DNA of 64,000 nt, from contig JAOAQY010000072.1 of the NCBI GenBank assembly GCA_025210965.1, positions 9,837 through 73,836 of the forward strand, given 5' to 3'. The notes under the pieces are model-generated. The model had not been told where the DNA came from, did no database searches, and saw only the letters and a list, made by a program, of their open reading frames with translations. Origin of the DNA: Tissierellales bacterium (GTDB lineage Bacteria > Bacillota > Clostridia > Tissierellales > JAOAQY01). The position numbers were made by a program, and so were the translations under genes. Numbering within the stretch: position 1 is the first letter of the stretch; every line of letters begins with the position of its first letter. Shown here one piece after another: positions 6,334 to 10,029 of this stretch.

Positions 6334-8205
6334 ATGACAATAGAAAAAGGAAATTTATCCATCCATAGCGAAAATATATTCCCAATTATAAAGAAATGGT
6401 TATATTCAGACCACGACATTTTCATGCGTGAACTTATATCAAACGCTTGTGACGCTATAACCAAAGTAAAAAGATTAAGCAGTTTAGGCGAGACAGATCT
6501 AGGCGATAATGATAAATTTGAAATAAAAGTCGTACTCGATGCTGAAAATAAAACATTAAAATTTATAGATAACGGTATCGGTATGACAGATGAGGAGATA
6601 AAGAAATATATAAATCAAATTGCCTTTTCAGGTGCTGAAGATTTTTTTAAAACTTACAAAGATAAAGGCGAAAACGAGCAAATAATAGGTCACTTTGGTC
6701 TAGGTTTCTATTCTGCTTTCATGGTTGCTGACCACGTTCAAATAGAAACATTATCTCACAAAGATGGATCTAAAGCAGTTAAGTGGTTCTGTGACGGTGG
6801 TACAGAATTTGAACTAGATGAGTCTTCGAAAACAGATAGGGGAACCGAGATAACTTTATTTATTGGAGATGAAGGTAAGGATTTCTTAAATGAATGGACT
6901 GTGAAATCTACTATAGAAAAATACTGTTCTTTTATGCCTTATCCTATCTATGTAGAAGTATTAGGAAAAGAACCTGAAAAAGACGAAGAAGGAAATGTAA
7001 TAATTACAGAGCCCGTTTCACTAAACGATACTACTCCTCTTTATGCAAAACATCCAAGCCAGTGTACAGAAGATGAATATAAGGAATTTTATAGAAAAAC
7101 ATTTAAAGATTTTAAAGAACCAATGTTTTGGATACACTTAAATATGGACTATCCTTTCAATCTCAAAGGTATATTATATTTTCCAAAATTAAATAATAAT
7201 TTTGACACTCTAGAAGGCGAAGTAAAGCTATACAATAGCCAAGTTTTTGTTGCTGACAATATAAAAGAAGTAATTCCAGAATTCTTATTACTTCTAAAAG
7301 GTGTTATAGATTGCCCTGATTTACCACTAAACGTCTCTAGAAGTTTCCTACAAAACGATGGATTTGTTAAGAAAACTTCTGATTACATCACCAAAAAAGT
7401 TGCTGACAAATTAAAAGCTCTATATAACACACAGCGAGAAAGCTATGAAAATTATTGGGATGACTTGAATCCATTTGTAAAATTTGGAACTCTCAAAAAC
7501 GAAAAATTTGCAGAAGCTGTAAAAGACTTTATACTATACAAGACTACTAATGGCAAATACTTAACCATACCAGAATATAAGGAACTTCATGAAAATAAAT
7601 TAGACAATGAAGTTTACTATACTACAGATGAACTTCAGCAATCACAATATATCAATCTTTTAGAATCTAATGATATAAGCCCAGTTCTATTGACTCATCC
7701 AATTGACTCTGCTTTTATATCTCACATAGAATCTCAAAATTCTGATTTGAAATTTAAGCGAGTAGACTCTGACTTGTCAGATTTACTAACTGAAAAAGAT
7801 TCTGATGAAGAAAAAACAAAAAACTCTTCTGAAAAACTACAAAATTTCTTTAGAAATGCTCTCAAATTAGAAAATTTGAACATTGAGCTAAAAAGTTTAA
7901 AAAATGAAGACATCTCGGGTATGATATTATTATCAGAGTCAAACCGCCGCATGCAGGATATGATGAAAATGTATTCTATGCCTGGTATGGATATGAATGG
8001 TTCTTTCCCTAGTGAAGAAACGCTAGTATTGAATCAAAAACATCCTCTTGTAAAATACACATTAGAAAATGATGAAGATGATACTAGTAGATTAATTGCA
8101 AAACAGATTTATGATTTAGCTATGATTAGTCATAAACCACTTTCAAGTGATGCCATGGCCGAATTTGTAAAACGCAGCAATCAAATCATGACTAAACTAA
8201 TATAG
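6334..8205 (+). CDS. htpG: Molecular chaperone HtpG (Hsp90)
   Basis: GHKL ATPase motifs ELISNACDA, DNGIGMT and GHFGLGFYSAF. Full length of 623 aa. Strong RBS. Confidence 0.95.
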   Translation: MTIEKGNLSIHSENIFPIIKKWLYSDHDIFMRELISNACDAITKVKRLSSLGETDLGDNDKFEIKVVLDAENKTLKFIDNGIGMTDEEIKKYINQIAFSGAEDFFKTYKDKGENEQIIGHFGLGFYSAFMVADHVQIETLSHKDGSKAVKWFCDGGTEFELDESSKTDRGTEITLFIGDEGKDFLNEWTVKSTIEKYCSFMPYPIYVEVLGKEPEKDEEGNVIITEPVSLNDTTPLYAKHPSQCTEDEYKEFYRKTFKDFKEPMFWIHLNMDYPFNLKGILYFPKLNNNFDTLEGEVKLYNSQVFVADNIKEVIPEFLLLLKGVIDCPDLPLNVSRSFLQNDGFVKKTSDYITKKVADKLKALYNTQRESYENYWDDLNPFVKFGTLKNEKFAEAVKDFILYKTTNGKYLTIPEYKELHENKLDNEVYYTTDELQQSQYINLLESNDISPVLLTHPIDSAFISHIESQNSDLKFKRVDSDLSDLLTEKDSDEEKTKNSSEKLQNFFRNALKLENLNIELKSLKNEDISGMILLSESNRRMQDMMKMYSMPGMDMNGSFPSEETLVLNQKHPLVKYTLENDEDDTSRLIAKQIYDLAMISHKPLSSDAMAEFVKRSNQIMTKLI

Positions 8206-8212
8206 TAAGATT

Positions 8213-8275
8213 AAAAAAGGGACTCAAATTGAAATTTCACATTAACTGAAACTTCAATTTTGAGCCCTCTTTTTA
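8213..8275. terminator. Bidirectional intrinsic terminator (htpG / cas6-like convergent pair)
   Basis: Long imperfect hairpin AGGG(A)CTCAAATTGAA...TTCAA(T)TTTGAGCCCT, with an A-run on the 5' side and a T-run on the 3' side. Confidence 0.75.
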
Positions 8276-8299
8276 ATTAAAATCTAAAAACTCTATTCT

Positions 8300-8998
8300 C
8301 TATTTTATAAACTCCGCTTTACAAAATCCTGCCCCTAATGCTGAATTTTTTTCCCCTATACCAGTAGCCAATGCAATAAATGCAAGTTTTTGAGATATTT
8401 CGTCCTCTTTTACCTCTATGCTCACCTTATTTCCAAGCAATTTTATATTCTTATACTTTAGTCCTACTGGTTTTCTATTTTTAAACTCGATTGATTTTAC
8501 TAAATTTACTTCTGCTTTCAAATCCTCATTAAAATATGATTTGTACTTCTTTTCTAAATTTGCAATCATTCTTTCATTGAAAATTTTTATATCTTGATTT
8601 TGAAGCCATGGTTGATCATCAATTGTAAGTATCACAGGACTTAATGTATGAAGAGTTTTGATTTTTCTCTGTTTTACAAGTTTCGCATCTATTGCTAATA
8701 TCTTAAAATCAAAACTCCTTAATACCCTCAAACATTTTCGCATTTTTTTCATCATTTCAACGTCTATACTTCTTATTTTGAAAATATATAGTTTGCCAGA
8801 TTTATATTTTTTATCGCGTTCAAATGGATAAAAGGTATCAAATACATAATTTTTGTATTGGTTTTTAGGATGTAACTCTTTTAGTTCTTCATCAAATAGC
8901 ATAGACTTGTTTATGTTTTTACCTATCACAAATCCAGCCTCATCAAAATCAATATCTTTTTTCAGCTCTATTGTAATTATTAGTTCTAAATATTCCAC
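8300..8998 (-). CDS. cas6: Cas6-like RAMP endoribonuclease, stand-alone
   Basis: 232 aa. C-terminal glycine-rich loop ATGIGEKNSALGAGFCK. Cas6-like blocks: LHPKN...YVFDTFYP, TLSPVILT, and LEKKYKSYFN (compare the ...KYK.FY.. block in type I-B clostridial Cas6). GTG start 5 nt after GAGGTG. Confidence 0.7.
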   Translation of the reverse strand: MEYLELIITIELKKDIDFDEAGFVIGKNINKSMLFDEELKELHPKNQYKNYVFDTFYPFERDKKYKSGKLYIFKIRSIDVEMMKKMRKCLRVLRSFDFKILAIDAKLVKQRKIKTLHTLSPVILTIDDQPWLQNQDIKIFNERMIANLEKKYKSYFNEDLKAEVNLVKSIEFKNRKPVGLKYKNIKLLGNKVSIEVKEDEISQKLAFIALATGIGEKNSALGAGFCKAEFIK

Positions 8999-9126
8999 AT
9001 CTTCACCTCAATTATTATTTACTACTATATCATTTTATTCCTTTTATACTTTTCTTTCAAGTTTCTTTACAATCTTTAAATCATTGTAGTATACTCTATA
9101 CAGTTAATACAAATATTAGGAGGTAT

Positions 9127-10029
9127 ATGATGCTTAATATACTATCAGATTGCGATCTATGTCCTAGAAATTGCCATGTAGATCGTTTCTCCCATACGGG
9201 TTATTGTAACTCTACAAATGAAATAAAACTATCTAAAGCATATCTTCATATGTGGGAAGAACCTTGTATTTCTGGTTCTAATGGTTCAGGTTGCCTATTT
9301 TTCTCAAATTGTAATTTATCATGCATTTTTTGTCAGAACTACGAAATAAGTCAAAATTCTAAAGGTAGATTAGTCTCTATCGATCAATTATCAAATCTAA
9401 TGCTAAAATTACAGAAAAATGGTGCACATAATATAAATTTAGTAACTCCAACTCAATATGTTCCTCAAATTTGTAAAGCTATCATTTTGGCAAAAAAGTT
9501 AGGACTTAGTATTCCAATTGTTTATAATACAAATAGTTATGAATCAACAAAAACAATACAAACGATAGCTCCATTTGTAGATATATTTCTTGCTGATTTC
9601 AAATATTTCGATGACAAATATGCAAGAGAATACTCAAATGCCCCAGACTACTTTAATGTAGCTAGTGCTGCCATCAAAACTATGTATGATTATGTCGGAA
9701 ACCCTATTTTTGATTTAGATTCAAAACTGATGAAAAAAGGTCTTATAATAAGACATTTGATGTTACCTGGACATGGCCTAGATACAAAAAACATAATAAA
9801 TTATTTATTCGAATCATATGGTTCAAATTTTTATTTAAGCTTAATGAATCAATACACTCCTTATTACAAGGCGCTAAATCATCCAAAATTGAATAAACCA
9901 TTGTCTCAAAACAGATACGAAAAAATGATAGACTATTGTTCCTCTTTAGGTCTAGAAAATGTATTTATTCAAGATAAAGGATCATCTTCCGATTCATTCA
10001 TACCTAATTTTGACAATCCGAACTTCTAA
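9127..10029 (+). CDS. Radical SAM protein, PflX/COG1313-like (pyruvate formate-lyase activase homolog)
   Basis: CxxxCxxC motif CNLSCIFCQN. N-terminal Cys cluster CDLCPRNCHVDR..GYC. RBS AGGAGG. Confidence 0.8.
   Translation: MMLNILSDCDLCPRNCHVDRFSHTGYCNSTNEIKLSKAYLHMWEEPCISGSNGSGCLFFSNCNLSCIFCQNYEISQNSKGRLVSIDQLSNLMLKLQKNGAHNINLVTPTQYVPQICKAIILAKKLGLSIPIVYNTNSYESTKTIQTIAPFVDIFLADFKYFDDKYAREYSNAPDYFNVASAAIKTMYDYVGNPIFDLDSKLMKKGLIIRHLMLPGHGLDTKNIINYLFESYGSNFYLSLMNQYTPYYKALNHPKLNKPLSQNRYEKMIDYCSSLGLENVFIQDKGSSSDSFIPNFDNPNF

Follow-up and report, generated by a model that had tools for sequence, protein, structure and literature searches.

A solo cas6 gene at a conserved housekeeping locus in a Tissierellales draft genome

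P. furiosus has several effector modules that use crRNAs. Its Cas6 (3pkm, 3i4h), a pre-crRNA endoribonuclease that cleaves unstructured repeats in trans, is described as a stand-alone enzyme (PMC3150331) with His46 and Lys52 as its catalytic residues (PMC3652601). Here we describe a Cas6 protein encoded by a lone gene in a 64-kb stretch of contig C164 of a Tissierellales draft genome (this entire stretch is referred to below as the window). The protein is ~19% identical to P. furiosus Cas6 and the repeat that is its predicted substrate is likewise predicted to be unstructured but, in contrast to P. furiosus, no effector module that could use crRNAs was found in its draft genome. The archaeal Cas6 of M. 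jannaschii (5yi6; ~20% identity) is the sole solved structure that could be reached from the window protein by a sequence profile (E = 6e-5), whereas a single-sequence search of solved structures gave no match. Class 1 effector loci are also present in Anabaena sp. PCC 7120, but the assembly with the window gene yielded none. What the two Anabaena Cas6 proteins share with the window protein is the concept of a Cas6 that processes arrays located away from cas genes (bioRxiv 10.1101/2020.04.14.041012).

Apart from the orthologue described below, the next-closest homologues come from Clostridium and allied genera and are annotated as Cas6 (45–59% identity), among which canonical operon-encoded Cas6 proteins are 57–59% identical to the window protein. 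Clostridial Cas6 proteins from Clostridium sp. MB40-C1, C. oceanicum, C. tetani, Anaerovorax odorimutans and Inediibacterium massiliense (P0005, P0008, P0065, P0009 and P0024) belong to the same family, have the same length and have H43, K49, Y51, the glycine-rich loop and the other invariant residues in common with it. The repeats associated with these homologues form a 30-nt family with a ...CCTTAACATNNGATGTATTNAAAN core. All five of the other homologue contexts that were examined lie in or beside I-B, III-A, III-B or III-D operons: cas6 is found next to an array and a full I-B operon on contig L025, heads a type III operon on contig L026, closes a III-A operon in C. tetani, heads a III-B operon in Anaerovorax and is adjacent to a type III operon in Inediibacterium; the type III operons of L026 and Inediibacterium both contain Cas10, RAMP and Csx19 genes. 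These homologues are encoded in or adjacent to effector operons and arrays, whereas the window gene is monocistronic and no effector was detected in its assembly. In a maximum-likelihood tree, the window protein and its orthologue form a clade (support 100/99) that is sister to the Clostridium group (96/94) and has an unremarkable stem length of 0.35.

The cas6 gene and its product

The initial annotation of the window described a 232-aa monocistronic gene with Cas6-like sequence blocks, a divergent promoter region of its own and a bidirectional terminator. All the motifs quoted there (ELHPKNQYKNYVFDTFYP, TLSPVILT, LEKKYKSYF and ATGIGEKNSALGAGFCK, which is followed by AEFIK) are present in the translation of the cas6 gene (Table 1). 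Its promoter-like element sits in the 128-nt divergent region that is common to cas6 and the radical-SAM gene. On the other side of the gene, the 94-nt spacer between htpG and cas6 (8206–8299) folds at −30.6 kcal/mol (z = −5.96), and none of 200 shuffled sequences folds as well; a hairpin flanked by A- and U-runs between two convergent genes fits a bidirectional terminator. Given the ribosome-binding site, the promoter-like box and this hairpin, the description of the transcription unit stands.

Table 1. Features of the cas6 region, numbered from the first position of the window (contig C164)
Feature	Coordinates	Strand	Basis and remarks
cas6 CDS	8300..8998	−	232 aa, GTG start, stop included; Cas6b-like endoribonuclease, type I-B/III-associated subfamily
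RBS GAGGTG	9004..9009	−	5 nt upstream of the cas6 GTG; read from the sequence; GAGGTG also in L024
Promoter-like TTGAAA-17-TAAAAT for cas6	9032..9060	−	Consensus scan, 10/12 matches; putative function
Long hairpin with A-run and T-run at its flanks	8210..8277	.	RNA folding; likely bidirectional intrinsic terminator
htpG (HSP90 family), convergent neighbour	6334..8205	+	ORF; Pfam HSP90 on identical neighbours in L019–L024
Radical-SAM enzyme gene, divergent neighbour	9127..10029	+	ORF; Pfam Radical_SAM in L019–L024

The window was also said to lack both a direct-repeat array and any cas partner, and we reached the same result: TRF analysis and k-mer and fuzzy repeat scans of C164 were negative, and searches of this contig with cas family models matched cas6 alone as a cas gene. 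The only other match on C164, to the cas3_core model, is a generic helicase that scored 20 bits, far under the cut-off.

The cas6 product passed the family cut-offs of TIGR01877 (77.5 bits versus 58.65) and of the Pfam family Cas_Cas6_C, PF01881 (40.6 versus 23), and matched the PADLOC Cas6b model PDLC01784 (4.1e-84) over positions 1–229 of 230, i.e. along its full length. Judged by its sequence, the window gene is a true, bona fide Cas6, with similarity far beyond chance, as had been proposed from its motifs. The AlphaFold2 model, built from 29 homologues (pLDDT 91.9, pTM 0.89), has the two tandem ferredoxin/RRM-like (RAMP) domains, and its best Foldseek matches (5yi6, 3pkm, 3i4h and 3qjj) are all Cas6 proteins; M. 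jannaschii Cas6 (5yi6) ranked first with a TM-score of 0.75, and the highest TM-score, 0.78, was obtained with the P. furiosus Cas6–RNA complex (3pkm).

The alignment of the 29-member family contains 16 invariant columns, which include H43, K49, Y51, G213, E216, G222 and G224. The window protein keeps every one of the 16 invariant residues and matches the consensus at each of the 16 near-invariant columns. Its C-terminal glycine-rich loop, G213-I-G215-EKNSAL-G222-A-G224, aligns to the G-rich loop of 5yi6 and has six residues instead of five between the glycine pairs, in agreement with the one extra residue noted previously. A conserved catalytic His, for which the initial annotation had called, has a candidate in H43, which is invariant across the 29 sequences and is predicted to be catalytic. 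In the profile search of solved structures, H43 and K49 aligned to the His and Lys of M. jannaschii Cas6, and their spacing (six residues) is the same as that of His46 and Lys52 in P. furiosus Cas6 (PMC3652601). No equivalent of Tyr31 of the latter enzyme could be identified in the window protein. These comparisons suggest that nothing points to a loss of catalytic capacity, and the gene apparently encodes an intact Cas6 that is predicted to be catalytically competent.

Conservation of the solo arrangement

A protein identical to the window Cas6 is encoded on six metagenome contigs, the longest of which is 187 kb. In the five places that are shown for it, the gene has the same neighbours, the divergent radical-SAM gene and the convergent htpG, wherever the contig reaches them. 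A 79%-identical Cas6 orthologue occupies exactly the same position, between htpG and the radical-SAM gene, on the Logan contig L024 (21.7 kb), the sole contig by which this sister species is known. Amino acid identity between the window and L024 is 89% for HtpG, 79% for Cas6 and 70% for the radical-SAM protein. For cas6, pN is 0.116 and pS is 0.82, which means that synonymous sites are saturated, and this constraint is comparable to that on the neighbouring genes. The upstream intergenic region is 84% identical between the two species and the −35 box, the −10 box and the ribosome-binding site are all kept. The GC3 of cas6 equals that of its neighbours.

Because the solo arrangement has been kept in L024 with a pN of 0.12 at saturated synonymous sites, we conclude from the sequence comparison that cas6 is under purifying selection. 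By the same comparison, the solo arrangement is common to at least two related species and predates their split. An old, conserved arrangement, selection, retained promoter-like boxes and ribosome-binding site and matching GC3 all argue for a long-resident, functional and vertically inherited solo cas6. The L024 orthologue, the low pN, the conserved promoter-like boxes and ribosome-binding site and the GC3 value argue strongly against a recent fragment or a decaying relic. In five relatives that have radical-SAM orthologues (43–47% identity), no htpG was found within 1.5 kb of these genes, so that they do not set the ancestral state of the junction. The window Cas6 thus belongs to a known family, and its solo arrangement is both unusual and conserved. 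A literature search with the phrase 'orphan Cas6' returned no paper, and solo cas6 genes were not discussed in two papers on CRISPR evolution.

Arrays and effector genes in the draft assembly

The draft assembly comprises 243 contigs (3.6 Mb, 32.6% GC, 95.8% complete, with a minimum contig size near 2.5 kb). Repeats of the type found with the Cas6 homologues are present on two of its contigs, C74 and C60, which directly supports the earlier suggestion that the window Cas6 serves a distant array in trans. The array scan of the assembly found six 30-nt repeats with five unique spacers of 35–37 nt on the 4.3-kb contig C74. The repeat, which on the transcribed strand reads ATTAGACCTTAACATGCGATGTATTGAAAC, is near-perfect throughout this first array (0–1 mismatches). 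It is identical at 24 of 30 positions (80%) to the repeats that flank the nearest Cas6 homologues (GTTGAACCTTAACATGAGATGTATTTAAAT) and its 3' end is the classic 8-nt handle of I-B/III systems, AUUGAAAC. The repeat RNA is predicted to be unstructured, which fits the P. furiosus-type Cas6 fold since this fold binds unstructured repeats. The array has a leader of ~170 nt with the element TTGAAA-17-TATACT just upstream of the first repeat and ends with a degenerate repeat followed by a terminator-like hairpin. A second leader on C74, 91% identical to the first, drives two 'hybrid' repeats (L002:2483-2730, G000:C74) in which the first 21 nt are kept and the last 9 nt differ (...ATGATCTGCTCC in place of ...ATGTATTGAAAC). 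The left end of an IS3-type element on the same contig is directly bordered by a 14-nt fragment of the repeat (L002:802-815). C74 also carries a serine recombinase gene and the end of a gene for an ImmA/IrrE-type peptidase; its composition is typical of the bin. C60 contains a solitary repeat preceded by a related leader end. An independent 180-kb contig carries an identical copy of this leader–repeat unit in chromosomal surroundings, and C60 shares exact 141-mer overlaps with two other contigs. Thus, arrays of the cognate family occur in the same assembly, itself a draft bin, as the window gene.

A fuzzy scan of the genome, allowing up to seven mismatches, found no credible repeat-like sites beyond C74 and C60, and a scan with a minimal motif revealed no excess outside the arrays (28 hits versus 42 in shuffled sequence). 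Two weak motif matches, 65 nt apart on C191, were rejected as AT-rich intergenic noise. Exact patterns for the C74 leader–repeat junction and the repeat core had no matches in the public metagenome, genome and viral contigs searched, which left the array without a link to cas genes or further samples. The C74 array region had no match in GenBank phages and its spacers had no self-target in their own genome. The IS3 proteins of C74 were absent from the protein collection in an exact look-up, and the contig could not be extended.

Effector and adaptation partners were sought in the 3.6-Mb assembly with nine cas family models and with tblastn searches using 14 non-Cas6 proteins from a I-B operon and a III-D operon; the positive controls of the family searches matched in the expected reference genomes. 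The assembly had no match to Cas1 or Cas2 (TIGR00287, PF09827), to Cas7 (TIGR01595, PF05107), to Cas5 (PF09704) or to the RAMP model PF03787. Likewise, tblastn was negative in the assembly with Clostridium cas1 and cas4, with Clostridium cas8b, cas7, cas5 and cas3 and with the C. oceanicum type III proteins. The operon proteins of both types retrieved cas6 itself, one unrelated weak match and a match to one accessory NARF-domain protein, which in the query operon is encoded after the type III genes.

The Cas3 core, Cas3 HD and Cas10 palm models gave marginal matches only, all but one under the family cut-off. The best cas3_core match in the assembly is a DeaD/DbpA RNA helicase, below the cut-off, and the matches to the Cas10 palm model (PF22335) are GGDEF diguanylate cyclases. 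The cas3_HD match at the end of C58, also below the cut-off, corresponds to a stand-alone HD phosphohydrolase of 216 aa in housekeeping surroundings. The GGDEF protein of C58 was absent from the protein collection in an exact look-up.

Accordingly, the 95.8%-complete draft yielded neither the components of a complete type I-B system (Cas8b–Cas7–Cas5 and Cas3, together with Cas1–Cas2, with or without Cas4) nor those of a type III system (Cas10 and the Csm/Cmr RAMP subunits). A complete cas locus lacking its own cas6, which the initial annotation had named as the case that would make the window gene a displaced component, was not found in the 243 contigs. Since this draft is fragmented and 95.8% complete, the absence of effectors from the organism is not proven.

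The sole other cas genes in the assembly are two Cas9 genes with arrays of their own. They lie in tandem on C47 (160.7 kb), encode proteins of 1308 and 1324 aa and match the PADLOC Cas9 models with E-values of 2.4e-261 and 5.8e-275. Each is followed by arrays of 36-nt repeats (L003:598-9600, i.e. G000:C47:598-9600, and L004:12030-12698 at the end of C47). Both ends of the contig bear arrays, and these have near-duplicate spacers in common. The cas9 genes are not followed by cas1, cas2 or csn2, and the whole assembly yielded no Cas1 or Cas2. The C47 arrays were set aside as unrelated to Cas6, being type II, Cas9-linked and independent of Cas6.

Possible roles of the solo Cas6

We lean, with limited confidence, towards the view that the window Cas6 is a trans-acting pre-crRNA endoribonuclease for dispersed arrays of the I-B/III type. 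The gene would be transcribed alone, from its conserved promoter at the housekeeping locus between htpG and the radical-SAM gene. When the small arrays of C74 and C60 are transcribed from their leaders, its product would bind the 30-nt repeats, which are largely unstructured, and cleave each of them 8 nt before the 3' end, so that the handle typical of I-B/III crRNAs remains. We infer the C74 and C60 arrays as the substrate, the position of the cut and the expression of cas6. Against this reading stands the failure to find any class 1 effector or adaptation gene in the assembly, which would leave the processed crRNAs without a known user. The arrays themselves are tiny, one repeat fragment abuts the IS3-type element, the repeats of the second array have altered 3' ends and mobile-element genes lie next to them; further, the repeat shares just 80% identity with those found with the nearest homologues, and the other public contigs searched did not contain the C74 repeat and so offered no case of its co-occurrence with cas6 in other samples or in the sister species. 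The C74 and C60 arrays may have arrived recently and transiently, in contrast to the old solo cas6. As to the effector genes, they would be either unassembled or unbinned, or supplied by mobile elements, or truly absent.

In one form of trans-acting processing, Cas6 is a displaced component of a complete I-B or type III effector module (perhaps with adaptation genes) that has no cas6 of its own and is missing from the draft or the bin. This is a special case of the reading favoured above and does not exclude it; that such an operon exists in the real genome, which is what our estimate refers to, appears to us possible at somewhat less than even probability. CRISPR–Cas islands are often strain-variable and poorly binned, and an assembly that is 95.8% complete and split into 243 contigs, the smallest about 2.5 kb long, leaves room for a missing one. 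Array 1 of C74, with its near-perfect repeats and unique spacers, looks as expected of a recently active system, and trans-acting cas6 genes located apart from effector operons are known, as in P. furiosus (PMC3150331). However, the nine cas models and the 14 tblastn queries detected no effector in 3.6 Mb, the sub-threshold matches turned out to be GGDEF cyclases, a DeaD/DbpA helicase and a stand-alone HD phosphohydrolase, and the places beside the leaders on the array contigs, where cas genes would be expected, are taken by IS and recombinase genes. Beyond the share of a missing module, what remains of trans-acting processing is split between processing that is truly effector-less and supply of effectors by mobile elements. 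A lineage truly devoid of class 1 effector and adaptation genes might have kept an active Cas6 since before the two species diverged as a host-encoded, effector-independent RNA-processing factor, a proposal that we regard as unlikely. Such an enzyme might cut the transcripts of orphan or mobile-element mini-arrays and solitary repeats into small RNAs that act in regulation or in conflicts between elements or, alternatively, it might be on standby for effector modules that mobile elements introduce.

The main rival of trans-acting processing, which we consider rather unlikely, is domestication: the class 1 system would have been lost long ago, Cas6 would bind or cut some non-CRISPR RNA, and the C74 and C60 arrays would be cargo of mobile elements. 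It would account for a solo arrangement at a housekeeping locus that is older than the split of two species with saturated synonymous sites and is held by purifying selection, for the lack of effector and adaptation genes in the assembly, and for arrays that are small, IS-disrupted and set among mobile elements. Nevertheless, the protein has kept every residue that is invariant in the family, is 57–59% identical to canonical operon-encoded Cas6 with no exceptional branch length, and has arrays of its cognate family in the genome, whereas repeat-like and minimal motifs outside these arrays do not exceed the shuffled expectation. The gene might also be seen as a functionless, decaying relic of a lost CRISPR–Cas locus, given that it has no neighbouring array or cas genes and that the arrays elsewhere look eroded. 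This is very improbable, as the frame is intact in six contigs and in the 79%-identical orthologue and the signal of selection is strongly opposed to it: pN is 0.116 against saturated pS, promoter and ribosome-binding site are conserved and all invariant residues are kept.

At this locus, selection has preserved an intact Cas6 as a solitary gene, at the same housekeeping site in two species, and the draft genome contains only miniature arrays of the repeat type of this Cas6 and no detectable effector. If a closed genome confirms the absence of effectors, the locus will offer a tractable case for the role of an intact Cas6 and orphan arrays without interference machinery. If effectors turn up, it will be an ordinary split locus that still illustrates how draft bins create apparent orphans.

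Several other elements lie near the candidate arrays or are related to their surroundings. On C60 (L027:658-811), a 140–150-nt element directly downstream of the leader region of the solitary repeat is a dispersed intergenic repeat, which recurs on C176, C98 and C44 at 96% identity and on C222 and C114 at 84–87%. Two overlapping genes beside the solitary repeat (L027:1032-2823), which may form a toxin-like or defence pair, encode a ParA/CbiA-like ATPase of 368 aa and a small protein of 256 aa with a RelA/SpoT domain. Contig C15 (G000:C15:2900-4300) carries a reverse-transcriptase-like ORF (...YSDD...) followed by the gene for an ImmA/IrrE-type metallopeptidase; the two may form a retron-like or abortive-infection-like defence module. 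The sequence for the C-terminus of this metallopeptidase has 85% DNA identity to the gene fragment at the left edge of C74.
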